The translations under genes and the position numbers were made by a program. A model generated the notes under the pieces. It did no database searches and was not told the origin of the DNA. It saw only the letters and a program-made list of their open reading frames with translations. A stretch of DNA of 64,000 bases, from NCBI GenBank assembly GCA_044432975.1, contig JAWXUC010000002.1:24573-88572 (forward strand), read 5' to 3'. This document shows, piece after piece, positions 2,215 to 39,460 of this stretch (position 1 is its first letter; every line of letters starts with the position of its first letter). Source of the stretch: Alphaproteobacteria bacterium (lineage in GTDB: Bacteria > Pseudomonadota > Alphaproteobacteria > RF32 > CAG-239).

Positions 2215-4428
2215 ATGGCAATAAAAGAGAATATTTATAACGTAATAAAAAAATATGCCGATTTTATAATAGAAAATTCATCATCAGCAGAAATGACTGA
2301 TGAAAACTTTTTTCAGTTTTTGTCAACTCAAAAAAAAGCATTAAATTACCTTAATAAAAAAGGTGTTGATATTGAAGCTTTTCAAAAATATTGCCAAAAA
2401 GGTATTGCAAAATCAAGAAAATACAATCAAGAAATTTGGGCTGATGAAATATCTTTTAATGATACTTCTGACATGTCTGGTTTTTTAGGATCTGTTTTAA
2501 GCAAATCTGGTTATCAAGCAGGATATAACGAATTTATAGATGAAATGGTTGTTGCAATAAATGCCTCTGCAGTAGGCAACAATAATTCAGGATTATTTGA
2601 TTTTGCAGATAAAGAAGAGTTAGATAAAATTATTGAAATGGGTTTTGATATATCTAAATTTTCCTTAGATAAAGCACAAGATACTGTAGATTATGCAAAC
2701 TATGAATATCAAGAAAGAGGTTATGAACTACTTATTACTATCCCTGATTTATATAATAAGATAAAAGATTATGACGTTCATGCAAAAAAACAAGAAAACC
2801 AACCAATAATCGTTGGCTTTGAAGAAGAGCTAGAAAAAGTTTACAAGTTGTTTAATAAATTAGATAGTGCATTAATAAATGTTTCAGGAGATTTTGGTGT
2901 TGGCAAAAGTTCTTTTGTAAAAAAAATAAAAAACAACCTAAAAAAACAAAAAAAATCATGCTTATTTTCTGAAGCAAATATTAGTATTCCTGAGTTTGAC
3001 GCTTTTCTAGCAGAGGTGAAAAATAATGATAGGGTTGCTATCATTGATGATTTTGATGAGTTACCTGTTCAGCATAAAGCAATTTTTTATCAATATGTAA
3101 ATGAAATAAAATCAGTAGTTGTAACAGATAAAAAACTTATTGGATCAGATGTTTTTATAGATATGAAAACTCCTTCAACAGAAGAAACCTTAAAAATACT
3201 CTCAACAAACAAAACAAGATATGAAAATCATCATAAATTAACCATAGATGATGATGTATTAAAAGATTGTATAGAGCTTTCAAATAAACACTTAAAAAAT
3301 TTAAATCAACCATTAGGTGCTTTTACTCTTTTAGACACTTCCTGCGCATTTGTCAAAGATGAAGAATATTTAAATACTTCTCATCTTCAAACAGCCTTAA
3401 ACACAGTTTACGAAATACCTAATCAAACCATTTTTGATACATACTCACAAAAGATAATGCATTTACCAGATATTTTATCAGAAGAAATTTTAGGACAAAC
3501 AGATGCGTTTAATACTATAAGAAAACATTTAACACAGCAAATTATTTTCCCAAGATCTGGCAAACCCAAAGCAAGTTTTATCTTTGCAGGTTCTTCAGGT
3601 GTCGGAAAAACACAAACTGCAAAAAACTTGGCAAAAACTTTGGGTTTAAAATATCTTCAATATGACATGGGTGAATATTCTCAAGAAATGGATGTAAACA
3701 AATTTTTAGGCTCTGCCGCAGGCTATGTTGGTTATGATGAAGGCGGAAAATTAGTTAATGATGTTTCAGCAAACCCAAACAGCTTAATTGTATTTGATGA
3801 GATAGAAAAAGCAAACCCCAAAGTAGTACGAGGTTTATTGTCAGCATTAGAAGAAGCAAGATTGCAATCAGGAAACGGAAAAACAGCATCTTTTGAAGAT
3901 ACAATAATCATCTTAACCACCAATTCAGGTTTTAGTTCTCAAGAAATCAGAAAACCTGTTGGATATGGCACAAATTCACAAGCCACACAAAAAATATCAT
4001 CAGTTCAAATCTCAGATAAATTAAGCAAAGATTTTCCATCTGAGTTTTTATCAAGAGTTAATGCTAAAATAGCATTCCAACCTTTGAGCACAGATGTTTC
4101 AAAAGAAATTATAAAACTAAATCTTAATAAATATAAAAAGATAGCAAAAAAGAACCAAGATATAGATTTAGATTTTACTCCACAAGTTACAGATGTTGTG
4201 TTAAGAGAGGCATTTTCTCAACAACAAGGTGCTAGAAATATAGAAAACTACATTAGAGAACACATTTTATCTGATTATTCAACAAAGTTTTTAAATAAAG
4301 AACTTAAAAGCGGCGATAAAGTAGTAGTTACTTATAATAGTCAATCAAAAGAATTTGTTAGTAGAAAAGCACCAAAACAAGATGGTTTAGTAGTGGTTGC
4401 TCAAAGAAAAGTAGTTACTCAACGTTAA
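2215..4428 (+). CDS. divergent ClpA-like two-domain AAA+ ATPase with a non-canonical N-terminal domain of about 210 aa
   Basis: The D2 region (FIFAGSSGVGKTQTAKNLAKTLG ... LIVFDEIEKANPKVVRGLLSALEE ... IIILTTNSG) aligns closely with the ClpA/ClpB D2 domain. The D1 region keeps Walker A (GDFGVGKSS) and the ClpA D1 C-terminal block (TPSTEETLKILSTNKTRYENHHKLTIDDDVLKDCIELSNKHL). There is no ClpB middle domain. The N-domain is unlike the ClpA/ClpS-binding N-domain. Confidence 0.6.
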   Translation: MAIKENIYNVIKKYADFIIENSSSAEMTDENFFQFLSTQKKALNYLNKKGVDIEAFQKYCQKGIAKSRKYNQEIWADEISFNDTSDMSGFLGSVLSKSGYQAGYNEFIDEMVVAINASAVGNNNSGLFDFADKEELDKIIEMGFDISKFSLDKAQDTVDYANYEYQERGYELLITIPDLYNKIKDYDVHAKKQENQPIIVGFEEELEKVYKLFNKLDSALINVSGDFGVGKSSFVKKIKNNLKKQKKSCLFSEANISIPEFDAFLAEVKNNDRVAIIDDFDELPVQHKAIFYQYVNEIKSVVVTDKKLIGSDVFIDMKTPSTEETLKILSTNKTRYENHHKLTIDDDVLKDCIELSNKHLKNLNQPLGAFTLLDTSCAFVKDEEYLNTSHLQTALNTVYEIPNQTIFDTYSQKIMHLPDILSEEILGQTDAFNTIRKHLTQQIIFPRSGKPKASFIFAGSSGVGKTQTAKNLAKTLGLKYLQYDMGEYSQEMDVNKFLGSAAGYVGYDEGGKLVNDVSANPNSLIVFDEIEKANPKVVRGLLSALEEARLQSGNGKTASFEDTIIILTTNSGFSSQEIRKPVGYGTNSQATQKISSVQISDKLSKDFPSEFLSRVNAKIAFQPLSTDVSKEIIKLNLNKYKKIAKKNQDIDLDFTPQVTDVVLREAFSQQQGARNIENYIREHILSDYSTKFLNKELKSGDKVVVTYNSQSKEFVSRKAPKQDGLVVVAQRKVVTQR

Positions 4429-4984
4429 TAGATTTTAATTTTTGTTTTTGATAATTATTCATAGACTTATAAACTAAAACAGCGCTTTTCTTAGCATTTT
4501 CAACCCCTAAATTATATGCTTTTTTATACAACATAAAAGATTCTATTAAATCTTGCTCAACTCCGATTCCTTTTGCATTCATAAAAGCCAAAAGTTCTGT
4601 TGCTTGAGGGTCTTTTCTTTTAATCCTGTTATTTATAATCTCAATTTCAAAAGGGGTAACTTTATCTTGCTGAATTGCTAAAATAACCGCTTGCCATTTT
4701 AATTCTTCAGCTTTTTGTTGCGCAGTTCTTTTTGCTATTTTATTTTCAAAAAATATAACATTTTCATTATTTTCAGATTCTTCTGGAGTTATATTTTCAA
4801 CATTTTCAATATCTTTCAAAAAGTTGGGAGCTTCTCTGTTTTTTACAAACAAAGGAAGATAGTCTTCATTATCAGCTTTTACAATTTCACGATAAATTTC
4901 ATCAAGATTAGTGGTTTCACCAAAACAAATATTTGGTAAAAAAGCAAAAAAAGATAAAATAAATATTAAATTTTGAATTTTCAT
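4415..4984 (-). CDS. secreted Sel1-like repeat (SLR/TPR-like) protein
   Basis: N-terminal signal peptide MKIQNLIFILSFFAFLPNICFG. Sel1-type repeats (…AELLAFMNAKGIGVEQDLIESFMLYKKAYNLGVENAKKSAVLVY). Confidence 0.5.
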   Translation of the reverse strand: MKIQNLIFILSFFAFLPNICFGETTNLDEIYREIVKADNEDYLPLFVKNREAPNFLKDIENVENITPEESENNENVIFFENKIAKRTAQQKAEELKWQAVILAIQQDKVTPFEIEIINNRIKRKDPQATELLAFMNAKGIGVEQDLIESFMLYKKAYNLGVENAKKSAVLVYKSMNNYQKQKLKSINVE

Positions 4985-5056
4985 ATTGTCATAATAAATA
5001 AATATTGTTAATAATAAAGCATTAAATTAATTTTATATACAAGTTGAGGATAAATA

Positions 5057-5941
5057 ATGATATATGAAAGCATAACAGAAATGGTTGGCAACACTCCAAT
5101 GTTAAGATTAAAAAAGATAGAAGAGTTATATAATACAAACGCCAAAATATATGCAAAACTAGAGTTTTACAATCCGTTGTTTTCAGTAAAAGATAGAGCT
5201 GCATTATTTATGATAGAAAATGCCAATCCAACCGCAGATACTGTTTTTGTAGAAGCAACCAGTGGCAATACAGGCGTTTCATTATCTTCTTTTTGCGCTG
5301 CTAAAGGATATAAATTGATTATAACCATGCCAGAATCAATGAGTGCAGAACGTATAAAGCTAATGCGCCATTTTGGAACAGAGGTAATTTTAACTCCAGC
5401 CTCAGAAGGTATGCAAGGCTCTGTTGATAAGGCTTTAGAAATTGTAGAAAGCAACCCTAACGCAGTATATATTAATCAATTTAACAATGAAGAAAATCCC
5501 AAAGCTCATATCTTTACTACTGCCGTAGAAATCTTAGACGATATGGATGGTAATATAGATGCTTTAGTTTTAGGTGTTGGTACCGCAGGAACTTTAAGCG
5601 GAATTTCTCAAACATTAAAATCTGTAAACAAAAATCTAAAGGTGGTAGGGGTTCTGCCAGAAAGTCAACCTCACAAAATTATGGGAATAGGCGCAAATTT
5701 CAAGCCTCCATTTTTTGAAGAAGATTTAATTGATGAACAGTTTTTATGTTCAGATGAAAAAGCTATAGAAATGGCAAAAGTAGCCGCAAAATTAGAGGGG
5801 CTTCCAATAGGCATTTCATCAGGCGCAGCATTAGCAGGAGTCGTTGAGCAAGCTCAAAGAGAAGATATGAAAGATAAAAACATTGTAACTTTATTTGCTT
5901 CTTCAGCAGAAAGATATTTATCTACAGGAGTTTTTGACTAA
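5057..5941 (+). CDS. cysK: cysteine synthase (PLP-dependent; CysK/CysM family)
   Basis: PLFSVKDRAAL (PLP lysine), the SGNTG loop, and the GxGTxGT glycine loop (GVGTAGTLSG). Confidence 0.75.
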   Translation: MIYESITEMVGNTPMLRLKKIEELYNTNAKIYAKLEFYNPLFSVKDRAALFMIENANPTADTVFVEATSGNTGVSLSSFCAAKGYKLIITMPESMSAERIKLMRHFGTEVILTPASEGMQGSVDKALEIVESNPNAVYINQFNNEENPKAHIFTTAVEILDDMDGNIDALVLGVGTAGTLSGISQTLKSVNKNLKVVGVLPESQPHKIMGIGANFKPPFFEEDLIDEQFLCSDEKAIEMAKVAAKLEGLPIGISSGAALAGVVEQAQREDMKDKNIVTLFASSAERYLSTGVFD

Positions 5942-7047
5942 TGGGTTATAACACAATATTAGGAAGATATCTGTCATTAAACTTTCTAAAGTCATTTATA
6001 ATGATTTTAGCAATAGTGGCAGGCATTGTATTTTTGTTTGATATGATAGAGATTGTAAGACGTTATGGAGATAACGAGCTTGCCGATGGTCTAACATTGT
6101 TAAAATTAGGATTATCTCGATTACCCCAAACATTTAATATGATATTTCCTTTTGTGATGTTAATCGCTGCCCAAGTTAGTTTTTATAAATTATCTAAAAC
6201 TAATGAATATGTGGTTATTAGAACAGCAGGCGCTGATTTATGGCAGTTCTTAAAACCTGTTTTATATACAACATTTATTATAGGGTTGTTCAATATAATG
6301 TTATTAAACCCTATGCTTTCAAAAATGTATGAACTCCACGAAATAATTTCTTATAGATTAGATGTAAAAAATCCCAATGCTTTTGTTTTTTCAGATAAAG
6401 GCTTATGGATAAAAGAAGGCGAAAACGGAAAATCTGTTATTTTAAATGCAAAAAATATCCGTCAAGAAACCGAGAATGAGCTTCTTTTGCGCAATGTCTT
6501 AATATTAGAATTAAAAGACAATAAAACCTTATCAAAAAGAATAGAAGCCTTTGCAGGTGTTCTTTCAGAAGGATTTATAGACCTTAAAGATGTAAAAATT
6601 TATAAAACAGGACAACCAATACAAAAACTAGGTAATTTAGAATATAAAACAACCTTAGATATAACCAGAGTAAAAGAAAGCTTTATAGATCCAGATGCAA
6701 TTTCTTTTTGGCAATTACCACCAATGATATCTTTTTATCAAAAAGCAGGGTTTTCGGCTTCAACTTATTTAATTAAATTTTTATCATTATTAGCACTACC
6801 GTTTTTATTGTGTTCTTTAGTGTTGTTAGCTGCGATATTTTCATTACAAACAACCCATAGAAAAGGTACAGTGATGTATTTGGTTGTATCAGGTTTATCT
6901 ACAGGCTTTTTAATTTATTTCTTATCTCAGTTAATATATGCCTTTGGTGCAAGTAACATATTTCCACCTGCATTAGCTGCATTTTCACCTGCAGTAATAG
7001 TTGGTTTAATTTCAACAACTGTTTTATTGCAAATGGAGGAAAAATGA
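5941..7047 (+). CDS. LPS export ABC permease of the LptF/LptG (YjgP/YjgQ) family
   Basis: 368 aa, N-terminal ILGRYL motif, six predicted TM segments with a periplasmic insert. LptF versus LptG cannot be decided from sequence alone. Confidence 0.7.
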   Translation: MGYNTILGRYLSLNFLKSFIMILAIVAGIVFLFDMIEIVRRYGDNELADGLTLLKLGLSRLPQTFNMIFPFVMLIAAQVSFYKLSKTNEYVVIRTAGADLWQFLKPVLYTTFIIGLFNIMLLNPMLSKMYELHEIISYRLDVKNPNAFVFSDKGLWIKEGENGKSVILNAKNIRQETENELLLRNVLILELKDNKTLSKRIEAFAGVLSEGFIDLKDVKIYKTGQPIQKLGNLEYKTTLDITRVKESFIDPDAISFWQLPPMISFYQKAGFSASTYLIKFLSLLALPFLLCSLVLLAAIFSLQTTHRKGTVMYLVVSGLSTGFLIYFLSQLIYAFGASNIFPPALAAFSPAVIVGLISTTVLLQMEEK

Positions 7048-7505
7048 GAATAGCCTTTTTTCAACCAGACATAGCTCAAAACGCAGGAACAATTATAAGA
7101 TTAGGAGCTTGCGTAAATATAGGTGTTGATATCATAGAACCTTGTGGTTTTATGTTTAATGAAAAAGCCTTAAAAAGAGCAGGGATGGACTATATAGAAC
7201 AGTGCGATTATAAAAAACACATCTCATGGGATGCTTTTTTAGAGCATAAAGAAGCAAACCCAGAAGAATATGGCAGAATTATTTTATTAACCACAAAAGC
7301 CAGCGTAAACTATACCAAATTTGAATTTAAAGAAAATGACGTATTGTTATTAGGCCGAGAATCAAAAGGCGTACCACAAGAAGTTCATGATATTGTAGAC
7401 GGTAGAGTAATTATTCCAATGACAGAACACGCCAGATCATTAAACGTTGCCATAAGCGGCGCCATGGTCCTAAGCGAAGCCCTAAGACAAATAAACCAAA
7501 TATAA
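7044..7505 (+). CDS. trmL: tRNA (cytidine/uridine-2'-O)-methyltransferase TrmL (SpoU family)
   Basis: 153 aa, collinear with E. coli TrmL (…NAGTIIRLGAC… IEPCGF… LLLGRESKGVPQEV… RSLNVAISGAMVL). ATGA overlap with the upstream gene. Confidence 0.75.
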   Translation: MRIAFFQPDIAQNAGTIIRLGACVNIGVDIIEPCGFMFNEKALKRAGMDYIEQCDYKKHISWDAFLEHKEANPEEYGRIILLTTKASVNYTKFEFKENDVLLLGRESKGVPQEVHDIVDGRVIIPMTEHARSLNVAISGAMVLSEALRQINQI

Positions 7506-7509
7506 CCCC

Positions 7510-7577
7510 GTAGGGGACGGGTCTGCCGTCTCTAAAAAAAATATCAACACCTGTAGGGGACGCATTGCATGCGTCCC
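7510..7577. repeat. two GTAGGGGACG-headed REP-like hairpins
   Basis: gtaggggacgggtctgccgtctc at 7510-7532 and the perfect palindrome gtaggggacgcattgcatgcgtccc at 7553-7577. The same head motif recurs at 8043, 15288, 30588 and 45290. Confidence 0.7.
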
Positions 7578-7591
7578 TCAGCATCAAGGCA

Positions 7592-7620
7592 TAAAAAAAA
7601 AGCCACCTAAAAAGGTAGCA
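7592..7620 (-). terminator. rho-independent terminator (minus strand) after small paralog A
   Basis: On the minus strand, GCUACC/GGUGGC stem (one G-U pair) followed by a U9 tract. Confidence 0.5.
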
Positions 7621-7629
7621 AAACAGAAA

Positions 7630-27862: not shown

Positions 27863-30583
27863 ATGGAACTTAACCAAGCAATTAAGTTAGTAAAATCAGG
27901 CGAGTTTAAAGAACTAGCCATTTTTGACTTATGGGAACTTACATCTGTTTTAGAAGCATCTAACTCAACAGATGCTCAAATAGCCCTTCAAGAAGTAAAT
28001 GGAGTTTATTCTCAATCTTATATGAAAGATGAAAACAAAAACTTTGGAGAAATTGTAAAAACAAACATAAAAGCAATAGAAGCTTTAAATTACAACCCAA
28101 TGTCAGATGTTGAAAATAAAGAAGTTCAAAGAATAAACAAAATTTTTAACAATATAGAAATAGAAAACACTCCTGATGCAGATTATGTTTCTCATCAAGA
28201 CTTTAAAGATTTTATGATAGAAGTTTCAGATTTAGAAGCTCAAGAAGTTTTATTAAAAAACAAAAACTTTGCTCAATTAGATAAAACAGAACAAAAAAAG
28301 GCTTATAACAACGCTTTCTTTTCTTCAATACAAGCAAACTTAGTTACTTTGGTTAGCAACACTTTTCGCCCTAAAAACTTGCAAGAGGCAAACGAGCTAT
28401 CAAAAGAAGCTATGTCTGGCTTAGTAAATGCCAACAAAAAATTCAAAGTTACAAATACAAACGCTATTGCTATTATTAACAATGCTTATAAAAGAACAAA
28501 AACCTTTGCAGATAACTTAGCTAAAAAAACAGGCATTTCTTGGTTGGCCCAAAAGGTTAAAGCTTTTGATAAAAAAGCTTCAGAAAAATTCCCAACATCA
28601 TGGGGATTATTAAAAACATTTGGCACATCTTATGGTGCAATGGTATTTGGTGGTCCCGTTGGTATTGCAGCTTTAAGTGGATACAATTTATACAAAACAA
28701 CCAAAGCTATAAATAAAGAAGCTCAAGCCAACAATAAAAACTTCTTCCAACAAGTATTTAGCAAACCAAGTACTGCAATTTCATTTAGTATTGCAATTGC
28801 AGGTACAGCATTAACAGGTTATTCTGCATTTTCATCTGGCTTTAACTATGGTTTAATAGAAAAAGCTTTTGATGGTAAAGCTATAGAAGGAGTTAAAACT
28901 TTAGGAGCTAATTTAAGCACATTTAACTTTGATGCATTAAAAAACACAGATTTTTGGAAAAGAACTGCAGTAATGTCTTCAGGTTCATTAGCTGTTATTT
29001 CAGAAGAAGTTTATGGAGCATTAAATACTAAAGATAAAAAAGAAAGAAAAGCTAGATGGAAAAAAGTACAAGCTGTTGCCTTAACATCTATAGCAGGTAT
29101 TGGACTTGGTGCAACAACAAACGCCTTAATGTCAGAAGCAACCGTTGCTACAAATACAGACACAAATACAGATATTAATACAGACACAAAGCAACCTGCA
29201 ACCCCAGAACCTGTTGCAACAACTGAATTAAATACAGAAAGAAAATTCAACTTCTTCGATAAATTTATTTCTGGAGATAATAATAACAATTCTCAAGAAT
29301 TCAAAGTTGTTGCAGATAACACTCAAGATACAACTCAAACCACAGAACCTGTTGCAACAACTGAATTAAATACAGAAAGAAAATTCAGCTTCTTCGATAA
29401 ATTTATTTCTGGAGATAATAATAACAATTCTCAAGAATTCAAAATTGTTGCAGATGATGTTCAAAATACAAATCAAACATCAGATGTTGTTACAACAGAA
29501 GCATCTCAAGATGTTTCAGATTTCATTAAAGACACACACAGAAGCTATAGTGCAGATGAATTTAGAGACAGCCATAGAATTATGAACATGTGGGTTGAAA
29601 AAGACAACTTAAACTCTGTAATAAGCAACTTGCAAGAAGCCGGCTTAACAGAAGCTGAAGCATATAGATATGCTCACAATGCAGCTATTTGTGGTTCTCA
29701 AACAACAGATAGCATTTCACAAGCAGCTCCTAGTTATGAAGGCGAATTTGATGCAAGCAGACAAACTTGTGGCAGAACAGCTTCTAACGGATATCACACA
29801 TTATGGGGTGGCAAAGCCCTTGTTGATGCTGGTTTAACATTAGATGCCAGAAACACATTAGCAGGATCTGTTAACTTCCATACAGGTGAGGTTATTATCT
29901 CTCAAGAAGCTATGACAGCTTTTAGAGACTTTGACGCCAGATTAATTGACAATGGTGTTATTGACACAGGCGCATTAGTTAATGCCAACGCAAGTGATTG
30001 CAACCATTTATCAGGAAACACTCGTATAAATGAACATGGTCAATCTGTTTTAGGCAGCAATGGTGGAAACCGTTTTTCATCTTATGCCACAACAGATGTT
30101 AAACCAACACCAGTAGCAACTCCAGAACCTGTTATAGTTCCTGAAAAAGTTGTTGAACCAGTTGTAATACCAAAGCCAATAATTAATGAGCCAATTGTTT
30201 TTCCAGAAAGACTTGTAATTCCAGAACCTATTATAATTCCAGATCCTGTTGTTGCTCCAGAACCTATTATAACTCCAGATCCTGTAGTTGAACCAAGAGC
30301 TAACAGCGGACACTATGACAACTATGAAGATTTGTTAAGACAAGTAGGCATAGATCCCGCAACAGAAACTCCACTTGATTCAACAGAATTAAAAGATATC
30401 TTAAATTCAAATGGTGGACACTCAAGTGATTTGAACTCATTAAATTCTACAGAAAACACTCAATCAAATCATTATGATAGCAAACAAGATTTGTTAGAAC
30501 AAATGAACATAGAGCCTGCTGAAGAAGAAAAACCATTAACAGCAAGACAATTAAGAAGAATGTTAAGACAATCTTCAAGATAA
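27863..30583 (+). CDS. large repeat-containing hypothetical protein; putative secreted or effector protein
   Basis: About 906 aa from the RBS-supported ATG; the track ORF begins at 27800. Four Gly/Ala-rich hydrophobic segments. A 46-aa tandem duplication (TEPVATTELNTERKF[NS]FFDKFISGDNNNNSQEFK). A Pro-rich PEPV/PDPV region. No signal peptide. Confidence 0.5.
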   Translation: MELNQAIKLVKSGEFKELAIFDLWELTSVLEASNSTDAQIALQEVNGVYSQSYMKDENKNFGEIVKTNIKAIEALNYNPMSDVENKEVQRINKIFNNIEIENTPDADYVSHQDFKDFMIEVSDLEAQEVLLKNKNFAQLDKTEQKKAYNNAFFSSIQANLVTLVSNTFRPKNLQEANELSKEAMSGLVNANKKFKVTNTNAIAIINNAYKRTKTFADNLAKKTGISWLAQKVKAFDKKASEKFPTSWGLLKTFGTSYGAMVFGGPVGIAALSGYNLYKTTKAINKEAQANNKNFFQQVFSKPSTAISFSIAIAGTALTGYSAFSSGFNYGLIEKAFDGKAIEGVKTLGANLSTFNFDALKNTDFWKRTAVMSSGSLAVISEEVYGALNTKDKKERKARWKKVQAVALTSIAGIGLGATTNALMSEATVATNTDTNTDINTDTKQPATPEPVATTELNTERKFNFFDKFISGDNNNNSQEFKVVADNTQDTTQTTEPVATTELNTERKFSFFDKFISGDNNNNSQEFKIVADDVQNTNQTSDVVTTEASQDVSDFIKDTHRSYSADEFRDSHRIMNMWVEKDNLNSVISNLQEAGLTEAEAYRYAHNAAICGSQTTDSISQAAPSYEGEFDASRQTCGRTASNGYHTLWGGKALVDAGLTLDARNTLAGSVNFHTGEVIISQEAMTAFRDFDARLIDNGVIDTGALVNANASDCNHLSGNTRINEHGQSVLGSNGGNRFSSYATTDVKPTPVATPEPVIVPEKVVEPVVIPKPIINEPIVFPERLVIPEPIIIPDPVVAPEPIITPDPVVEPRANSGHYDNYEDLLRQVGIDPATETPLDSTELKDILNSNGGHSSDLNSLNSTENTQSNHYDSKQDLLEQMNIEPAEEEKPLTARQLRRMLRQSSR
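29207..29454 (+). repeat. intragenic tandem duplication (about 110 bp near-identical, 138-bp period, 2 copies)
   Basis: gaacctgttgcaacaactgaattaaatacagaaagaaaattca… repeated at 29207 and 29345. Confidence 0.7.
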
Positions 30584-30630: not shown

Positions 30631-30822
30631 CCAAACGTCATTGCGAGCGAAGCGTGGCAATCCAGTTAAACAATACATTCGTATAAAAAAACAGGTGTTT
30701 TTTTTTACACTTTTCAATGTAGAACGGGGCCGGGGGCGACGTTTCGCCCTTGCTCCCGCCTCAAAGCACTACAAAAGGAGGCACCCCAAACGTCATTGCG
30801 AGCGAAGCGTGGCAATCCAGTT
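30631..30822. repeat. two direct copies of a 40-bp RPE-like palindromic element flanking a GC-rich spacer
   Basis: ccaaacgtcattgcgagcgaagcgtggcaatccagttaaa at 30631 and again at 30784. The spacer between them is GC-rich (gggccgggggcgacgtttcgcccttgctcccgcc). Confidence 0.7.
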
Positions 30823-30834
30823 AAATAACAAAAC

Positions 30835-32061: not shown

Positions 32062-32499
32062 ATGAAAACATATTATATCGTTAGTGGTGGCTTTGACCCA
32101 ATCCATGAAGGGCACATAGCCATGATATTAGAGTCGGCTCAAAAATCAGATGGTGTTATTGTGTTGGTTAACTCCGATGATTGGCTAGCTCGCAAAAAAG
32201 GAAAAGGTTTTCAAACATACAAGACCAGAAGTTGTATCTGTTCTGCCTTAAAAGGTGTTATTGATGTTATAGATTTTGATGATTTTGACAATTCAGCCTC
32301 TGATGGCATAAGAAAGGCAAGAGAAAAATATCCTGATGCCAAATTAGTTTTTGCCAACGGTGGCGATAGAGGCAAAGACAATATCAGAGAAGATGATGTT
32401 TGCAAAGAATGTAATGTATCTTTAGAATTTGGTGTTGGCGGAGATTTCAAAGCCAATTCATCATCTTGGATATTAAAAGAATGGTACAAGGAAGACTAA
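32062..32499 (+). CDS. cytidylyltransferase-like nucleotidyltransferase; probably D-beta-D-heptose-1-phosphate adenylyltransferase (HldE domain II-like)
   Basis: VSGGFDPIHEGHIAMI (HxGH) and the blocks VIVLVNSDDWLARKKGKG and VFANGGDRGKDNI parallel RfaE/HldE domain II. Confidence 0.6.
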   Translation: MKTYYIVSGGFDPIHEGHIAMILESAQKSDGVIVLVNSDDWLARKKGKGFQTYKTRSCICSALKGVIDVIDFDDFDNSASDGIRKAREKYPDAKLVFANGGDRGKDNIREDDVCKECNVSLEFGVGGDFKANSSSWILKEWYKED

Positions 32500-33701
32500 T
32501 GCCTATAAAACTACTTTTTGACATGGAACAATTATCAATAGCTGGCACCAAAGGTACTGGTGTCGTTAGGATTGCAAAAGAATTGCTTTTTAAATTAGCT
32601 AACAATCCAGATATTGACTTATATCCTCTTGTTACCACAAAACGTGGCGATGTTATAAAATATTTAGAATATGCAAATTTGACTAATTTAAAAGACAAGA
32701 TTGTCTATATGACAAAGCTAAAAAACACTACAAAATCTACAAGTATCAAAAAAAGAATAAAGTCAAAAATCAGTAGCTTTATAAACTTTAATAAATACAA
32801 CAAACAATTATCAAATTTTGATGCTTATTTTTCTATTTTCAGTCCAATTTCGCCAATTGTTTATAAAAGCAATATAAAAACTTATATGTTTATACATGAT
32901 TTAATTCCTATTTTTCATCCAGAATTTTGCGATGCAAAATTTGTAACTAAATATACATCTAGGATGAAAGATATTGATGCAGACACAATCTTTTGCAATT
33001 CAGAATATACCAAGCAAGATTTATTAAAATTTCGCCCAGATTTAATTTCAAAAAACATAGACGTTGCTTATTTGGCTGCAGATGAGAAGTTTCAGCCAAT
33101 TACAGATGTTAAAACCTTAAAAAATGTAAAAGAAAAATATAATATAAAAACCGATAAATATTTTTTAGGTGTTTCTGAGCTTTCAACCAGAAAAAACTTT
33201 ATACACCTATTGCAATCATACATTAACTTTTTAAGAAAAACAAAAGCAGAAGATATCTCTTTGGTTTTGGTAGGGCCAATCAGAAAAGGCTTTAAAGATA
33301 TAACAAAAGCTATTAATAACTTTGAAGAATACAAAGAAAAAATAATTTGCACAGGCTTTGCCGATGACCAAGACATGGCACCTTTATATTCAGGAGCTTT
33401 AGCCTTTTGTTACCCAAGCTTATATGAAGGTTTTGGCTTACCAATATTAGAAGCAATGCAATGCGAAACACCTGTTATCTCTGCAGACAACAGCTCTCTA
33501 CCTGAAGTAGGCGGCGATGCAGTTATCTATATAACAGGAAAAGACGAAGAAGAAACCTCAACCAAACTAACAGAAATCTACACCAACAAAAACTTAAGAG
33601 AAAACCTATCAAAAAAATCCCAAACCCAATCCCAAAACTTCAGCTGGGATAAATTCAACAATCAAATTTGTAATGTTATGATAAAGGAAATAAAAAAATG
33701 A
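32499..33701 (+). CDS. glycosyltransferase family 1 (GT4-type)
   Basis: EGFGLPILEAMQCETPVIS (the EX7E motif). Start set at the ATG at 32499, which has a TAATG overlap with the upstream gene; the track ORF begins at 32466. Confidence 0.7.
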   Translation: MPIKLLFDMEQLSIAGTKGTGVVRIAKELLFKLANNPDIDLYPLVTTKRGDVIKYLEYANLTNLKDKIVYMTKLKNTTKSTSIKKRIKSKISSFINFNKYNKQLSNFDAYFSIFSPISPIVYKSNIKTYMFIHDLIPIFHPEFCDAKFVTKYTSRMKDIDADTIFCNSEYTKQDLLKFRPDLISKNIDVAYLAADEKFQPITDVKTLKNVKEKYNIKTDKYFLGVSELSTRKNFIHLLQSYINFLRKTKAEDISLVLVGPIRKGFKDITKAINNFEEYKEKIICTGFADDQDMAPLYSGALAFCYPSLYEGFGLPILEAMQCETPVISADNSSLPEVGGDAVIYITGKDEEETSTKLTEIYTNKNLRENLSKKSQTQSQNFSWDKFNNQICNVMIKEIKK

Positions 33702-34675
33702 AAACACCAATTTTATTTTTAACATGGATAAGACCAGATGTTACAGCAGAAGTTTTTTCTCAAATCAGAAAAGCAAAACCTGAAAGACTATATATTGCAC
33801 AAGATGGACCGAGGTGCGAAGAAGAAAGAACTTTAATGATGCAAACAAGAGATGTTATTAAAGTTGATTGGGATTGTGAAGTTAAATACCTTCATAGAGA
33901 AGAAAATTTAGGCTGCAAAAGAGGTGTTAGTGAAGCTATAACATGGTTTTTTGAACAAGAAGAAATGGGAATTATTTTAGAAGATGATTGCTATCCCGAC
34001 ATGTCATTTTTTCCATTTTGCGAAGAACTTTTAGAAAAATATAAAGATGATACAAGAGTTATGCATATTTGTGGAAGACCAGATATAAAATATTTCAACA
34101 AAAGAGATATTAGTGAACGCAGTTATTATTATACTAAAATATTAGGTTGCTGGGGTTGGGCTTCATGGCGAAGAGCTTGGCAATATTTTGATATAAATAT
34201 GTCAAATTTTAATGATTTTGTAAAAGAGAGTGCTATTGATAAGTTTTTACCTTGCGATCCAAATATAAATCGTTATTTGGAAATATTTAAATCACATTCC
34301 ACTGGAAAAGAAAAAGGCTGGGCATGGATTTATGCTTATAGCTTACTTTGTCAAAATGCTTTATGTATAAGATCCTCTAAAGTTTTAATTAACAACATAG
34401 GTGTAAACCATGAAATTTCAACACATAAACATTCAGGTGCTGCTGACGTTATTTACAAAAAAGAAGTTGCAGAATTTCCTTTAATTCACCCAAATTTCAT
34501 GGTTGCTGAAAATTACATCAACCAAAAAGAACTAAATAAAAAAACTTTATTAAAAAAAGAGGTGTTATCAAATGGACGGGTTAAATTTTATTTATTTGGT
34601 AAAAGGATTTACTCATACAAAACAAAAAACACTAAAATATTAAATCAAAAAATAGAGCTTATTAATTTAGATTAA
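33698..34675 (+). CDS. putative glycosyltransferase (GT-A-like); ends with the cluster's recurrent YLFGxxI.SYK motif
   Basis: ATGA overlap with the upstream GT. An ILEDDCYP acidic motif. C-terminal …NGRVKFYLFGKRIYSYKTKNTK. Confidence 0.35.
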   Translation: MKTPILFLTWIRPDVTAEVFSQIRKAKPERLYIAQDGPRCEEERTLMMQTRDVIKVDWDCEVKYLHREENLGCKRGVSEAITWFFEQEEMGIILEDDCYPDMSFFPFCEELLEKYKDDTRVMHICGRPDIKYFNKRDISERSYYYTKILGCWGWASWRRAWQYFDINMSNFNDFVKESAIDKFLPCDPNINRYLEIFKSHSTGKEKGWAWIYAYSLLCQNALCIRSSKVLINNIGVNHEISTHKHSGAADVIYKKEVAEFPLIHPNFMVAENYINQKELNKKTLLKKEVLSNGRVKFYLFGKRIYSYKTKNTKILNQKIELINLD

Positions 34676-34688
34676 TAAAGGAAGTAAA

Positions 34689-35567
34689 ATGTTAGACAAT
34701 AAAAAAATTATAGTTTCTTTAACATCATATCCAGCAAGAATAAAAACAGTGCACAAAACAATAGAAACACTACTTGCACAGTCTCAAAAAGCAGATATGA
34801 TTATATTAAACTTAGGAGAAGATAAATTTATCAATAAAGAAGATGATTTACCTTCAGAATTGGTTAAATTAACAACACAAGGATTAACTATTAATTGGTG
34901 TAAGGATATTGGACCTTTTACAAAATTAATTCCAACATTAAAAAAATATCCTAAAGCTGTTATAATAACAGCTGATGATGATATTCTTTATAATAAAAAC
35001 TGGTTAAAAAAATTATACAACTCTTACTTAAAAGAACCTAATTTAATTCATTGTCATAGAGCACATCTTGTATTATTTGACAAACAAAATAATATTAGAC
35101 CTTATCAAGAATGGACACATGAACAAACAAAAAGCTCAACATCTTTTAATAATTTTTTAACAGGCGTTGGCGGAGTTTTATATCCTCCAAACTGTTTTTA
35201 TAAAGATATTTTTAAAGAAGATATTTTTATGCAACTAACCCCAAATGCTGATGATATTTGGTTTTGGGCTATGGCACTTTTAAATGACACAAAAATAAAA
35301 ATAATTAAAAATAAAATCATAAAATTAAAATACATCAAAAATTCACAAAAAATATCCTTATACCACCAAAACCTATTGCAAAACAAAAATGACGCTAAAC
35401 TACAAGCTGTAATTAATTATTACCCCCAAATAAAAGATAAACTAGAGATAATAACAAAAGTTAATAAGAAAATAAAACTTTTCAAAAAAGAAAAATCACC
35501 AAACGGTGGGGGAGTATTTTATTTATTCGGAATAAAAATTTTAAGCTATAAAAAAAGGGGAAACTAA
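34689..35567 (+). CDS. putative glycosyltransferase; C-terminal recurrent motif
   Basis: N-terminal IVSLTSYPARI and ADDDI. C-terminal …KSPNGGGVFYLFGIKILSYKKRGN. Confidence 0.4.
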   Translation: MLDNKKIIVSLTSYPARIKTVHKTIETLLAQSQKADMIILNLGEDKFINKEDDLPSELVKLTTQGLTINWCKDIGPFTKLIPTLKKYPKAVIITADDDILYNKNWLKKLYNSYLKEPNLIHCHRAHLVLFDKQNNIRPYQEWTHEQTKSSTSFNNFLTGVGGVLYPPNCFYKDIFKEDIFMQLTPNADDIWFWAMALLNDTKIKIIKNKIIKLKYIKNSQKISLYHQNLLQNKNDAKLQAVINYYPQIKDKLEIITKVNKKIKLFKKEKSPNGGGVFYLFGIKILSYKKRGN

Positions 35568-36347
35568 ATGAAAATATTCAAAAAAATAAAATCAGCAAAC
35601 GGCAGAAGAAAAATTTATTTATTAGGAATAAAAATTTTAAGCTATAAAAATAAAAAAAATATTAAATTTTGTCCTATTTGTAATAATGAAAATACATTTA
35701 ATGGATTTGGCACAGTCTTAAGAAAAGATGCTATGTGTCCTGTATGTCGTTCATTGGAACGACATAGATTTTTATTTTTTATATATAATTTATTTTTCTT
35801 GCAAACTACAAGAAAAATAAAGGTGTTACATATTGCACCTGAAAAAGCAATATATGATATGATAATAAAGAATTCTAATATAGAATATCATCATATTGAT
35901 ATAGATCCATCTCAATACCCATATGCTTTGGGATGCAAACAAATGAATGCTTTAAATTTACAATTTAAAGATGAAACTTTTGATTTTATTATTCACAACC
36001 AAGTTATCGAACATATTGTTGATGAACAAAAATTTATTAATGAACAATTAAGAGTGTTAAAAGATAATGGTAAAATAATTGTAAATCTTCCATATAAAAG
36101 TGATTTGGAAAAAACTTTTCAAGATGATAACATAAAAACTGATGAAGATAGATTGAAATATTATTTACAAAAAGATCACGTTAGACTTTATGGACTTAAT
36201 ATGTTAGAAAACTTAAAAGGTGTAAATATAGAGAGAATTTTTGAAGACTTTATGACTACAAAATTAATTAATGAAATGCAATTAAAAAGAAATTTTATAG
36301 ATTTAGAAGATGCATATTTTTTAATCACAAAAAAAGAAAGGAAATAA
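35568..36347 (+). CDS. class I SAM-dependent methyltransferase with an N-terminal recurrent motif
   Basis: N-terminal MKIFKKIKSANGRRKIYLLGIKILSYKNKK. The methyltransferase core …FDFIIHNQVIEHIVD… is homologous to the C-terminal domain of 36349-37818. Confidence 0.6.
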   Translation: MKIFKKIKSANGRRKIYLLGIKILSYKNKKNIKFCPICNNENTFNGFGTVLRKDAMCPVCRSLERHRFLFFIYNLFFLQTTRKIKVLHIAPEKAIYDMIIKNSNIEYHHIDIDPSQYPYALGCKQMNALNLQFKDETFDFIIHNQVIEHIVDEQKFINEQLRVLKDNGKIIVNLPYKSDLEKTFQDDNIKTDEDRLKYYLQKDHVRLYGLNMLENLKGVNIERIFEDFMTTKLINEMQLKRNFIDLEDAYFLITKKERK

Positions 36348-36348
36348 A

Positions 36349-37818
36349 ATGAAAATAAGTTTAATTATACCTGTTTACAATGCATTAGAGGATGTAAAAA
36401 AATGCTTAAATAGTATATGTGAAAACTATAATAAATCTTATGAATTTATTATAGTTGACGACTCTTCTGATAACATAACTAGTGACTATCTCAAAAATTT
36501 TGCAAAAGAAAATAATTTTGTAAAATTATACAGAAATAAAGAAAATCTTGGTTTTGTTAAGACATGTAATTTTGCAATTAATAAAGCAAAAGGAGATATT
36601 GTTGTTTTATTAAATTCAGACACAATTATACCTTCAATGTTTGCAGAAAAAATTATAGATGCTTTTAATAAAAATGAAAAAGCAGGAATTGCATGTCCTA
36701 TTCCTAGTAGTAGTGGTCATTTTAGTTTAGAAATGCCTAAAAATTTTACTGTAGAGAAAATGAATAAATTAATTAACAAAAGACATACTCAATACCCCAA
36801 ACTTCCTTCATGCAATGGGTTTTGTTTTTGTATTAAACGAGAAGTTATTAACTCTATTGGTTACTTAGATGAGATCTATGGAAAAGGTTATGGGGAAGAA
36901 ATTGATTATTCATATAAAGCAATAGTTAATAAATTTGATTGTATCCTAATAGATAATTTATATGTTTTTCATAAAAGACATGCTTCTTTTGGAAATCAAA
37001 GAGATAAATTAAGCTTAAAAGGTAGCGAAATATTAAGAGAACATTGGGGAGATTTCTCTGAAGAATGGATAAAAGAAAATAAATATGTTAATCCAGTTTC
37101 TAAAATTGAGAAAAAAATATTCATTTCAAGAAAAACGTTTTTAACAAAAATAAAAAAAGAAAATGGTAGAAGAATAATTTATTTATTTGGAATTAAAATA
37201 TTAAGCTATAAGAAAAAAGTTAAACCCAAAAAGTATATTCCTTTAATAAAAAAAGAAGGCAAAAGATGGTTGGAAATTGGTCCTGGAAATGAAAGAATAG
37301 AAGGATTTGAAGGCTTAAACATTGTTAAAAACAATGCAACTGATTATATTGCCGATGTTGCAAAAGATGGAATTCCTTTTATAAATGAAAGTTTTGATTT
37401 AGTTTATTCATCTCATTTTCTTGAACATATAGAATGGTATAAAACTAAAGATGTTATTATAGAGATGTATAGAGTATTAAAAAAAGGTGGACATGTAGAA
37501 ATTCACGTTCCTGATGGATTAAAAATAGCAAAAGCTTTTGTTGATGCTGAAATGAAAAATTCTAAAGATTTTCATAAAGATAATTGGTGGAAATTTAATG
37601 ATGACAAAGATCCTTGCATTTGGGCAAGTGGTAAAACTTTTACATATGGAGATGGGAATGTAATTAAAGGACATTGGAATTCTCATTTAGCAATGTTTTC
37701 TTATAGATATTTAGAAAAACTATTAAAAGAAATTGGTTTTAAAAACATTAAGAAGTTAGACAAACCAAGAGGACATAACCACGGCTGGATTAACTTAGGA
37801 ATTAGCGGTGAAAAATAA
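36349..37818 (+). CDS. bifunctional GT2 glycosyltransferase / methyltransferase fusion, joined through the recurrent motif
   Basis: N-terminal GT2 domain (ISLIIPVYNALEDV…IIVDDSSDN). Linker …KENGRRIIYLFGIKILSYKKKV…. C-terminal methyltransferase (…FDLVYSSHFLEHIEW…). Confidence 0.65.
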   Translation: MKISLIIPVYNALEDVKKCLNSICENYNKSYEFIIVDDSSDNITSDYLKNFAKENNFVKLYRNKENLGFVKTCNFAINKAKGDIVVLLNSDTIIPSMFAEKIIDAFNKNEKAGIACPIPSSSGHFSLEMPKNFTVEKMNKLINKRHTQYPKLPSCNGFCFCIKREVINSIGYLDEIYGKGYGEEIDYSYKAIVNKFDCILIDNLYVFHKRHASFGNQRDKLSLKGSEILREHWGDFSEEWIKENKYVNPVSKIEKKIFISRKTFLTKIKKENGRRIIYLFGIKILSYKKKVKPKKYIPLIKKEGKRWLEIGPGNERIEGFEGLNIVKNNATDYIADVAKDGIPFINESFDLVYSSHFLEHIEWYKTKDVIIEMYRVLKKGGHVEIHVPDGLKIAKAFVDAEMKNSKDFHKDNWWKFNDDKDPCIWASGKTFTYGDGNVIKGHWNSHLAMFSYRYLEKLLKEIGFKNIKKLDKPRGHNHGWINLGISGEK

Positions 37819-37828
37819 ACTAAAATCC

Positions 37829-37862
37829 AACCTCCGCTTAAATAATTAAGCGGAGGTTTTTT
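37829..37862 (+). terminator. rho-independent terminator ending the glycan cluster
   Basis: cctccgcttaa/ttaagcggagg stem followed by a T8 tract. Confidence 0.7.
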
Positions 37863-38015
37863 ATTTTATTCCAAATGATAAAAAAAAGTCACTCCTCAAA
37901 TTATAGCAACAATTTGATTAGGAGTCTTCCTTTGAAAAATAAAAATTGAAGATTCCTAATCATTGCTTCGCAATGAGGAATGACTTTTTTCTCATATTTT
38001 AGGAAATCATTCTTA

Positions 38016-38309
38016 TTATTTAGGATACTTTTCCTTTATTTCGGTGATTTTTTCTTGCCACAGGTTTGTTTCATTAACCTTGTCCCAATACATCATGTCT
38101 AATTGCTCATTAAGGGTAGGGTATTCTAACACTCTTTTTTCAGCATACGTTGGTTCAGGAGCAATAGGCGCATAGCCAGACAAATAAAACTTCCCATCAT
38201 ATCCTTGCTCAACTTCAACATAATCAATCCCTTGCTTTTCTGCCACAATTTGATTTAATATCTGATATTCCTTAGTCTCTTCATTTATTAATTTCGCTCT
38301 TATTAACAT
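38016..38309 (-). CDS. small protein downstream-coupled to the tail-fibre-like gene; possible fibre assembly or chaperone partner
   Basis: 97 aa with a 1-nt overlap with the upstream gene. No recognisable motif. The function is inferred from context only. Confidence 0.3.
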   Translation of the reverse strand: MLIRAKLINEETKEYQILNQIVAEKQGIDYVEVEQGYDGKFYLSGYAPIAPEPTYAEKRVLEYPTLNEQLDMMYWDKVNETNLWQEKITEIKEKYPK

Positions 38310-39244
38310 TAATTAACTCCTTTCAATGGATAAACCTTTACACCACCTTGAGAAAACGTTATAACATCACCAACATCACAATAAACATGACAATTGGCTT
38401 TTGCATAATTATTATTCCCATAAACATCCCTGTTTAAATATCCAACATCCACACCATTAACATATACATTACCAGTCGATCCAGCATGGTTACCAATACC
38501 CACAACAAAACAAATCTCAGTACAAACATACCCCGTACTTATACTAACACCTGCGCTATAATCAGGAACAATCCAATTAACAACCTCTGCCTTTCCATCA
38601 TCAGAAATATTATCCATATCAACAGATGCTATGGTTTCTAAATTATCAGAAATTTCTTGCACTTTTTCTGTCGCCAACTCTGCTTTTTCTGTCGCAATTT
38701 CTGCTTTTTCTGTTGCAACTTCAGCTGCTACTACAGCCGTTTCTTTAGCCTCTAAAAGAACTGTCCCCAATGTATTAACCTCAACAACAGAATTCTCCAA
38801 ACGTGTGCCATCAGCATTCCAAATAAGAGATTTTCCAGCCTTTGGACTTGGCAAAGTTAAGTCAACATCTGTTGATGTCGCATAAGGAGGATAAATCATC
38901 GCTCTGCTTAAGTCATCATTCAAATCTTGAATACACGCCATTTGATAATCAAACTCATAATTCAATGTCGAAGCCCTTAACGCTCCGCCTTCCTGAAACT
39001 GCGTTGTCCGCTCTATCGGAATATTTCTCATTATAGTAACAACAACACCGCTTTGAGGGGCGGTGTTAAAAGTTATAGTCGCTTGCGTGTCATCATTTAA
39101 GACAACACTATAATTATCTGATGATATTAGTTCATCATCAAAATATATTTCCACCCCATCATCAATAAAAATCTCAAACGGAGTCTCATATTCAGTATTT
39201 TCACCATTAGAAACATACTGAATTCTTGATTCTTCACTACTCAT
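38309..39244 (-). CDS. phage tail-fibre-like protein
   Basis: 311 aa. N-terminal shaft-attachment-like region, a heptad coiled-coil (AVVAAEVATEKAEIATEKAELATEKVQEIS), and a C-terminal Gly/Tyr/Asn-rich beta domain (…GNVYVNGVDVGYLNRDVYGNNNY…). Confidence 0.5.
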   Translation of the reverse strand: MSSEESRIQYVSNGENTEYETPFEIFIDDGVEIYFDDELISSDNYSVVLNDDTQATITFNTAPQSGVVVTIMRNIPIERTTQFQEGGALRASTLNYEFDYQMACIQDLNDDLSRAMIYPPYATSTDVDLTLPSPKAGKSLIWNADGTRLENSVVEVNTLGTVLLEAKETAVVAAEVATEKAEIATEKAELATEKVQEISDNLETIASVDMDNISDDGKAEVVNWIVPDYSAGVSISTGYVCTEICFVVGIGNHAGSTGNVYVNGVDVGYLNRDVYGNNNYAKANCHVYCDVGDVITFSQGGVKVYPLKGVN

Positions 39245-39417
39245 ATTTTTTCCTTTATTTTAAAATAAAAAAAAGCCCTGCAAAAGCAGAGCTTAAAGCC
39301 AAAAAAGATATAATAATCCCTTTGACTAACTATAAAATGACAAAAACAACCCAAAAAGTCAAGCCCTTTTATCCATCATGTTAATAACTCCCCCAACCAA
39401 AGCGCAATCCCCCCCCC

Positions 39418-39450
39418 AACGTCATTGCGAGCGAAGCGCGGCAATCCAGA
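39418..39450. repeat. RPE-like palindromic element preceded by a C9 homopolymer
   Basis: ccccccccc at 39409-39417, then caacgtcattgcgagcgaagcgcggcaatccag. Confidence 0.65.
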
Positions 39451-39460
39451 ACAACATAAA

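Follow-up and report, generated by a model that had tools for sequence, protein, structure and literature searches.

What kind of element recurs, as a peptide of about 30 residues, in four consecutive genes of a glycan-biosynthesis cluster, and what might it do there? The cluster consists of six co-directional and closely packed genes at 32062–37818 of a 64,000-nucleotide stretch of contig JAWXUC010000002.1, from an uncultured gut Alphaproteobacteria bacterium (assembly GCA_044432975.1); this whole stretch is referred to here as the window. The four genes in question encode two glycosyltransferase (GT)-like proteins (GTa and GTb), a methyltransferase (MT) and a fusion of a glycosyltransferase with a methyltransferase (FUS), and the peptide that they share is called the motif or the tag. 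The 85-nt repeat underlying it is the coding sequence of a protein-level peptide module, and this module is portable and independent of any catalytic fold, standing at an N-terminus, at a C-terminus or in a linker. As to its role, we tentatively put forward that of a portable localisation tag, that is, a tether to the membrane or to the lipid-linked acceptor.

Four copies of one peptide in the window

A repeat finder returned a single family of 85-nt direct repeats with exactly four copies, located at 34539–34623 (64% identity to the reference copy), 35470–35554 (the reference), 35566–35650 (84%) and 37130–37214 (73%). Their in-frame translations align without gaps as a peptide of about 32 amino acids, K.F.KK..NGRR.IYLFGIKILSYKKK. 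All four are on the forward strand. The GTa copy (residues 281–313, KKTLLKKEVLSNGRVKFYLFGKRIYSYKTKNTK; 34538–34636; 51.3 bits) is the most divergent; the GTb copy (residues 260–292, KIKLFKKEKSPNGGGVFYLFGIKILSYKKRGN; 35469–35564; 52.9 bits) forms the extreme C-terminus of its protein; the MT copy (residues 1–32, MKIFKKIKSANGRRKIYLLGIKILSYKNKKNI; 35568–35663; 55.2 bits) opens the next one; and the FUS copy (residues 261–293, RKTFLTKIKKENGRRIIYLFGIKILSYKKKVKP; 37129–37227; 54.5 bits) lies between the GT2 and methyltransferase domains. When the motif profile was run against the six-frame translation of the window, these copies scored 51–56 bits and the next best match 8 bits; the similarity is therefore far above that expected from chance or low complexity.

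An earlier note on this DNA had described a peptide recurring at module boundaries, and in this it was right: the peptide is discrete, lies outside the catalytic domains and has the hydrophobic/Lys pattern reported. Its count of four junction copies plus one degenerate copy has to be reduced to four in all, the degenerate one among them, and the DNA string said to repeat four times matches three copies, that of GTa being just 64% identical. Nor is every module junction marked, as the nucleotidyltransferase and GT4 genes (32062–33701) have no copy.

DNA identity was compared with what the peptide alone requires by resampling the codons of each copy from the cluster's own codon usage. For five of the six copy pairs, DNA identity was no higher than the peptide and an AT-rich codon bias predict, the peptide by itself leading one to expect 55–64 matches over 93 nt (the genome is about 31% GC, and AAA, ATT and TTA codons are abundant). 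The exception was the adjacent GTb/MT pair, in which 73 of 93 nt are the same where 62.8 were expected (p=0.0008) and the codons match at 17 of 19 identical residues (p=0.002). Copies from other organisms retain 16–19 of 26 residues with a codon match of 22–58% at identical residues; Arg is encoded by AGA in the window and by CGN elsewhere, the invariant Ser by AGC, AGT, TCG or TCA, and GC content at third codon positions (GC3) ranges from 0.12 to 0.62. The peptide is thus kept while synonymous sites and codon families differ, indicating selection on the peptide. DNA similarity beyond the needs of the peptide is confined to the GTb/MT pair and is absent from the other five pairs and between organisms. 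The earlier suggestion of a recombination footprint fails as a general explanation, given the lack of excess in five of six pairs and the divergent codons, and keeps its force only for the excess identity of the adjacent pair. Rfam and tRNA scans of the region gave no RNA element, and no terminal inverted repeats were found around the copies.

At the boundary between GTb and MT the two units stand in tandem and in frame, 96 nt each (35470–35661, forward strand), confirming the tandem arrangement described previously: the spacing is 96 nt and the GTb stop codon TAA (35565–35567) abuts the MT start codon ATG (35568) in the same frame. The units share an exact run of 26 nt (35529–35554 and 35625–35650), and at the boundary they differ only in that the first has AAA-ATA (Lys-Ile) and the second TAA-ATG (stop-start); the final GTb codons, AGG GGA AAC, provide MT with a Shine-Dalgarno-like GGGGA. 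Because they are in frame, 96 nt apart and share both the exact run and an excess of identical codons, the two copies look like a gene-conversion pair or the product of a recent in-frame duplication of 96 nt. Deletion of one repeat unit, or two point changes (TAA to AAA and ATG to ATA), would be enough to give a tag fusion of GTb and MT, single or double, of the kind present in the neighbouring FUS gene. A strain variant of the locus (L034) differs from the window by in-frame 3-nt indels, namely a TGA unit in GTb (34973–34975) and a CAT insertion in FUS (36783), and by two substitutions; as these changes all fall outside the tag, phase variation at the tag is not indicated.

Carriers and predicted fold of the tag

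With a nine-sequence profile, HMMER was run exhaustively over 1.84 billion cluster representatives and recovered 103 proteins at E<=1e-3, of which 12 reached E<=1e-10; searching proteins by a word index with the motif profile was too insensitive, giving five short metagenome matches. The 117 copies examined comprised 80 that are N-terminal, their first motif position being the initiator Met and their start at or close to residue 1, and 37 that are C-terminal or internal, with the consensus M-K-[IL]-F-x-K-x-[KR]-x-x-N-G-R-R-x-[IV]-Y-[FL]-x-G-[IV]-K-[IV]-[FL]-S-Y-K-K-K. In the profile logo N12, G13, R14, G21, S26 and Y27 are conserved at 80–100%. Fisher tests at each position, comparing the N-terminal copies with the C-terminal and internal ones, found differences at Met1 and the adjacent N-terminal positions only, so that separate N-type and C-type classes of motif can be dismissed beyond the Met1 region.

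The 60 carriers with a length of 200 residues or more were assigned by Pfam scans to a wide range of enzymes. The glycosyltransferases were of the GT2, GT8, GT29 sialyltransferase, GT4, GT32, Caps_synth and TOD1/MUCI70 types; the methyltransferases were FkbM and class I; and the remaining carriers were LicD, hexapeptide acyltransferases (acetyltransferases), TupA-like ATP-grasp ligases and MptE-like proteins. With at least 12 unrelated families carrying it, the motif is not part of any single catalytic fold, and the possibility that it is an ordinary segment of one known domain family, which the earlier note had named as fatal to its proposal, is improbable. Four proteins (P0126, P0127, P0128 and P0133) have two copies about 40 residues apart. 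The first of these has the architecture GT8-tag-tag-FkbM methyltransferase, the covalent equivalent of the arrangement GTb-tag|tag-MT in the window; fused and split glycosyltransferase/methyltransferase architectures thus both exist, in the window and elsewhere. The fused and split genes of the window are not an assembly artefact, as the same gene order, with split GTb|MT and the fused gene, recurs at 99.9–100% identity in at least ten independently assembled contigs; a protein identical to FUS was found in NCBI and Logan (seven contigs), and MT likewise has a 100% match in NCBI.

A degenerate DNA pattern for N-G-R-R-x-h-Y-h-x-G-h-K-h (h, hydrophobic), searched against GTDB contigs with one genome per species, matched 28 stretches, about 23 of them genuine and five chance or weak (L003, L012, L019, L005 and L024). 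The genuine stretches were mostly in metagenome-assembled genomes of gut and rumen Alphaproteobacteria (Candidatus Enterousia and others), with single cases in Muribaculaceae, Akkermansia and Endomicrobiaceae; the motif is also present in higher-GC metagenome contigs (L001 and L002). Strict restriction to one lineage, on which the earlier note had asked for a database search, can therefore be set aside. The ten carriers that were looked up were all metagenome-derived.

Complete proteins of 61–63 amino acids consisting of the motif only were also observed (L001 1899–2090, L002 1451–1636 and P0132; also P0001 and P0004). Those of L001, L002 and P0132 are made up of the tag and a conserved tail, LLYRFFTYPLAVYDEYQRL(KFELKK), and are encoded in polysaccharide loci, after a TupA ATP-grasp or UDP-glucose dehydrogenase gene and before the start of a GT2 gene. 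These small tag proteins could be adaptors, regulators or pieces of frameshifted genes. Two further proteins, P0184 (147 amino acids) and P0227 (437 amino acids), contain four or five repeats of the bare hairpin core (RLQMYWMGIHILSFHRH; GAHSFWLFGKKILYWKHEL, with a period of about 70 residues).

The tag is conserved quite differently from the domains that carry it. The MT and FUS tags are 81% identical, whereas the corresponding methyltransferase domains are 30% identical over 67 residues, and the tag is the sole part shared by GTb and the GT2 half of FUS. The homology earlier asserted for the two methyltransferase domains accordingly amounts to this 30% over 67 residues, and the idea that split and fused versions of one gene lie side by side does not hold, as the catalytic domains are not orthologous. 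Split and fused orthologues being ruled out by comparison of both the glycosyltransferase and the methyltransferase domains, GTb|MT and FUS are analogous architectures.

Homologues of the FUS GT2 domain have a related element in the same place. An hhG[ILV]K[h] hairpin core occurs at the equivalent position in 79 of 119 aligned homologues, as the C-terminal tail of a protein of about 295 residues in 51 and as a linker to RgpF, WbsX, WsaF or GT4 in 28, and a dozen or more further GT2 homologues have near variants of it. Typical examples of these broad GT2 tails are ...IFSIKNSxDKKHKIITILGIKIKIK and ...DKTVWRIFGIKITLKK. They resemble the strict tag in their place after GT2, in the hairpin core and in their use as tail or linker, and differ from it in the first strand and first turn. 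Intermediates between the strict and broad forms exist (for example RLKIFLFGIKIFSYKK), and in P0231 the broad variant begins a methyltransferase homologue. Alignment of the strict motif with the broad variant by hhalign covered eight columns with a probability of 4.6%, for which reason we do not claim homology; the two are equivalent in position, and a common ancestry is plausible. In this broader form the unannotated tag is a widespread tail of glycan-assembly enzymes.

Among the methyltransferases, the closest homologues of MT have degenerate tags. Homologues in Bacteroidota have no tag and have instead a hydrophobic and basic stretch there (LIRTLLKYIPRPILIRFSLLINRVVALFY; MLQKLIRTLLKYIPRPILIRFSLLINRVVALFY), before a CxxC...CxxC segment. 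In a related glycan island (L031) the gene order is GT4-FkbM-GT8-MT-FkbM, with tag variants limited to the last two genes.

AlphaFold2 (AF2) models built from family alignments place three strands within the tag, at residues 267–271, 274–279 and 282–288 of FUS (predicted local distance difference test score, pLDDT, 63–81), immediately after the well-modelled GT2 domain, and at residues 4–8, 13–18 and 21–27 of MT (pLDDT 71–82). The tag is thus predicted to be a three-stranded antiparallel β-meander. From the strand register of the models, one face would present I3, I7, I16, L18, I21 and I23 and the opposite face K6, K8, R13, K15 and K22 together with F4, Y17 and Y26 (MT numbering). No Pfam or NCBIfam model covered the motif in scans of whole proteins, and the peptides alone gave nothing relevant at E<=10; precomputed Pfam lists for the tailed GT2 homologues likewise contained GT2 models only and left the tail uncovered. 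A profile search of the PDB for the motif returned only noise at E>1, including a tobacco etch virus (TEV)-site artefact. Strings of the motif sequence were not found in the literature searched, where searches by concept gave general precedents only.

Possible functions of the tag

The role that we favour over enzyme–enzyme docking is that of a tether to the membrane or to the lipid-linked acceptor. The tag would be a self-contained module of about 30 residues on cytoplasmic enzymes for the building or decoration of a surface glycan, and would keep otherwise soluble GT-A, methyltransferase, acyltransferase and similar modules against the inside of the cytoplasmic membrane, beside the lipid-linked acceptor; all tagged enzymes of one cluster would be co-localised through it, and it would double as a ready junction for fusing and splitting modules. 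Several lines of evidence point this way. The carriers are the kinds of enzyme that act on undecaprenyl-linked glycans; the tag is of cationic and aromatic composition; methyltransferase homologues have a hydrophobic/basic segment in its place; and the GT-B enzyme of the cluster (GT4) has no tag, GT-B being a fold to which a basic and hydrophobic membrane surface is intrinsic (PMC6286764). In the precedent of TagA a terminal appendage controls the membrane association of a glycosyltransferase with a lipid-linked substrate (PMC6493773). Like such anchoring tails, the tag is a cationic and hydrophobic/aromatic segment outside the catalytic fold (profile logo and AF2 register). Moreover, the exposed aliphatic face of a 30-residue sheet must be buried and, as the tag sits on unrelated folds at either end, packing against a host domain is unlikely in general, so that the membrane or another tag remains.

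Several points weigh against a tether. The confidence of AF2 on the motif is moderate (pLDDT 63–82), and the PDB profile search gave no solved structure with the motif. The conservation of N12, G13, R14, G21, S26 and Y27 at 80–100% speaks more for a particular fold or binding partner than for a generic membrane anchor, and the motif-only proteins of 61–63 residues and the doubled copies fit a protein–protein role at least as well. Membrane tails of lipooligosaccharide and lipopolysaccharide transferases have been described as helical, not β. In the L031 island the GT8 enzyme is untagged and two methyltransferases are tagged, so tagging does not simply track fold; and the homology between strict motif and broad GT2 tails, with its hhalign probability of 4.6%, is statistically unsupported.

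Tethering and docking are not mutually exclusive, and docking is the rival that has to be taken most seriously, although we regard it as rather unlikely. Here the β-meanders of different enzymes would pair, by sheet extension or as a sandwich of their Ile faces, assembling a multi-enzyme line of which the fusion proteins are covalent versions. Such a scheme accommodates the presence of several tagged enzymes per cluster (four in the window and two neighbouring genes apiece in L001, L004, L017 and L031), the abutting C-terminal and N-terminal copies in the window, the two copies about 40 residues apart in P0126–P0128 and the existence of motif-only small proteins. The strict conservation of NG, RR, G and SY also suggests a specific interface, and an aliphatic face on a sheet of 30 residues, deduced from the AF2 strands and the logo, needs a partner. 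What the scheme does not explain is the lack of any class-specific residue distinguishing N-terminal from C-terminal or internal copies beyond Met1, and hence of a complementary pair code; most of the 8-kb loci sampled have one strict copy, and in L031 the GT8 gene upstream of the tagged methyltransferase is untagged. A more elaborate form, to which we give less credence still, would make the tag a homotypic docking mini-domain the size of a WW domain, by which glycosyltransferases, methyltransferases, acyltransferases and amidoligases are zipped together as an ordered glycan assembly line apposed to the membrane, the small tag proteins being adaptors or caps and the coding sequence a junction for fusion and fission.

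The other explanations are more remote. The hairpin might be an ordinary structural tail, the last element of a GT2 subfamily, packed on the GT-A domain and carried into fusions without a function of its own. About two-thirds of the 119 GT2 homologues do have the hairpin core there, and AF2 puts it directly after the last GT2 helix; this explanation is nevertheless improbable, as the same peptide opens methyltransferases, ATP-grasp ligases, acetyltransferases, LicD and GT8/GT29 proteins at residue 1 and also stands alone, as it is 81% identical between MT and FUS where the catalytic domains reach at most 30%, and as the Pfam GT2 models exclude it. We consider it more doubtful again that the 85-nt repeat is a DNA-level element, a site or scar of recombination through which glycan-gene cassettes are shuffled, fused and split, with the peptide as a passenger linker. 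The excess nucleotide (p=0.0008) and codon (p=0.002) identity of the adjacent pair would suit it, recombination across these 96-nt in-frame copies with their 26-nt exact run would yield an in-frame single-tag fusion, the GC content of the cluster (0.255 versus about 0.31 for the window) and likewise of the L031 island is lowered, and the hairpin sits at the junction of many fusions. Between organisms, however, it is the peptide that is kept while synonymous sites and codon families differ, which largely refutes this as a general explanation; the other five of six copy pairs have no DNA excess over peptide and codon bias, 80 of 117 copies stand at the very start of single-domain proteins, a position without any junction, and neither an Rfam match nor terminal inverted repeats were found around the copies. 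Finally, although a genome of about 31% GC and a motif rich in AAA, ATT and TTA inflate DNA identity (55–64 of 93 nt expected), chance or low-complexity similarity in AT-rich, Lys-rich coding DNA has a negligible likelihood given the gap between 51–56 and 8 bits in the window, the 12 proteins at E<=1e-10 among 1.84 billion sequences and the presence of the motif in contigs with GC3 up to 0.62.

How soluble enzymes of O-antigen, capsule and lipooligosaccharide synthesis reach the lipid-linked intermediate and each other is known case by case. Basic/hydrophobic tails on such enzymes are already familiar as a broad phenomenon, and the function of the tag is inferred only. A single recognisable tag common to many enzyme families would mark, in the sequence, enzymes acting at the assembly site and would help to annotate the many unassigned genes in glycan loci of uncultured gut bacteria. 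It would also define clean domain boundaries for enzyme expression and give a small experimental handle on localisation or complex formation. As a conserved terminal peptide it supplies an in-frame seam for gene fusion and fission, which is visible in the adjacent GTb/MT pair.

The cluster and its neighbourhood

All six genes of the cluster are on the forward strand. The first (32062–32499) encodes a 145-amino-acid, cytidylyltransferase-like nucleotidyltransferase (Pfam CTP_transf_like, E=6.9e-10) without the motif, for which every specific NCBIfam model scored far under its cut-off. It had been taken for HldE domain II, but TIGR02199 (rfaE_dom_II) gives 39.9 bits against a cut-off of 181.5, and the score for a TagD-type glycerol-3-phosphate cytidylyltransferase is equal to it (39.8 bits, cut-off 165.4); the product is a generic nucleotidyltransferase. 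With this call the inference of a heptose-containing glycan loses its support, there being no heptose genes among the neighbouring genes examined, which also included no flippase, polymerase, ABC transporter or initiating transferase. A methylated glycan is plausible, given the two methyltransferase domains encoded in the cluster. The second gene (32466–33701) encodes a GT4 glycosyltransferase of GT-B fold (Pfam Glycos_transf_1, E=1.7e-27), in which the six-frame scan found no motif.

Of the tagged proteins, GTa (33698–34675; 325 amino acids, with the degenerate motif near its C-terminus) had no Pfam, NCBIfam or PDB sequence match and is a putative GT-A-like transferase from an EDD motif read by eye. 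GTb (34689–35567; 292 amino acids, ending with the motif) is a GT-A-like transferase with weak matches to Pfam GT2 (E=0.0028, under the cut-off) and, in a PDB sequence search, to KfiA (5z8b, E=7e-4). MT (35568–36347; 259 amino acids) consists of the N-terminal motif, a CxxC...CxxC segment and a class I S-adenosylmethionine-dependent methyltransferase domain (Pfam Methyltransf_11, E=2.1e-11; 44.8 bits against a threshold of 21.2); its AF2 model has a mean pLDDT of 90.9 and matches class I methyltransferases in Foldseek with E about 1e-9. The CxxC...CxxC segment, which is zinc-ribbon-like and lies between tag and methyltransferase domain (residues 35–61; 35670–35750), is kept throughout the methyltransferase family, including the untagged Bacteroidota homologues. 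FUS (36349–37818; 489 amino acids) has a GT2 domain at residues 4–170 (PF00535, E=2.9e-31; 109.1 bits against a cut-off of 23.3; AF2 pLDDT >90 over residues 1–250), and, joined to it by the motif, a class I methyltransferase domain (Methyltransf_23, residues 298–468; 37.8 and 37.4 bits against thresholds of 27 and 21.2 for Pfam Methyltransf_11/23). The AF2 model of this methyltransferase half is of low confidence and is unreliable because the alignment is shallow there.

The tagged part of the cluster (34001–38000) has a GC content of 0.25–0.26 compared with about 0.31 for the window, and the L031 island (2926–7627) one of 0.28 compared with 0.36 in its surroundings, which suggests that these glycan cassettes were horizontally acquired. 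The gap that separates FUS from the convergent gene contains a 26-nt inverted repeat (37873–37898 and 37974–37999; 81% complementary, 75 nt apart) that may be a bidirectional terminator. The genes convergent with the cluster, both on the reverse strand, encode a 311-amino-acid protein with a phage T7 tail-fibre N-terminal domain (38309–39244; PF03906, E=1.7e-7) and, following it, a 97-amino-acid open reading frame (38016–38309); the pair is kept beside the cluster in other assemblies, and no further phage genes were found among the neighbours examined. A GC-rich repeat of 43 nt (CCAAACGTCATTGCGAGCGAAGCGTGGCAATCCAG..., 86–98% identical) is present in three copies (30631–30673, 30786–30828 and 39415–39457) that flank ychF, the glycan cluster and the tail-fibre-like genes; it has a short stem (ATTGC...GCAAT), creates spurious 'MRAKRGNP...' open reading frames and may be a repetitive extragenic palindromic (REP)-like element or the remnant of a miniature inverted-repeat transposable element (MITE). 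Further upstream, a 927-amino-acid open reading frame (27800–30583) without a Pfam match has internal duplications and a C-terminal Pro/Val/Glu-rich repeat with an 18-nt period.

Comparison with known systems

LgtC, WaaJ and CstII have C-terminal basic/aromatic tails. Appendages of the TagA/LgtC/WaaJ/CstII type and the tag are alike in being short terminal segments outside the catalytic fold, rich in Lys/Arg and in hydrophobic or aromatic residues and dispensable for the fold, on enzymes for lipid-linked glycans at the cytoplasmic face of the membrane. The known appendages, however, are family-specific and described as helical, whereas the tag is a predicted β-meander of nearly fixed sequence that occurs at N- and C-termini and in linkers across at least 12 families, and its membrane binding is a proposal.

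The docking domains of polyketide synthases (PKS) and nonribosomal peptide synthetases (NRPS), some of them β-hairpins, form complementary and distinct C-terminal and N-terminal classes. Like the tag, they are short peptides at the C-terminal/N-terminal boundaries of consecutive enzymes, with covalent linkers in the fused versions, and the tag too could order an assembly line; if homotypic docking were true, the tag would be the polysaccharide counterpart of these domains. In contrast to them, the N- and C-terminal copies of the tag are one family without class-specific residues, the Fisher tests having found no distinct complementary terminal classes.

The WW domain (PF00397) is a three-stranded β-meander of about 35 residues that acts as an interaction module and is marked by a signature pair of Trp residues and by a conserved Pro. 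The tag is not a WW domain, as it gave no PF00397 match at E<=10 and its profile logo has no conserved Trp or Pro. The two nevertheless share their size, a predicted three-strand topology, conserved aromatics on one face and a G-containing first turn; they differ in that the tag lacks the Trp pair, the C-terminal Pro and any sequence match, and is highly cationic, bacterial and cytoplasmic. The WW domain serves here only as an analogy, which shows that so small a sheet can be an autonomous binding module.

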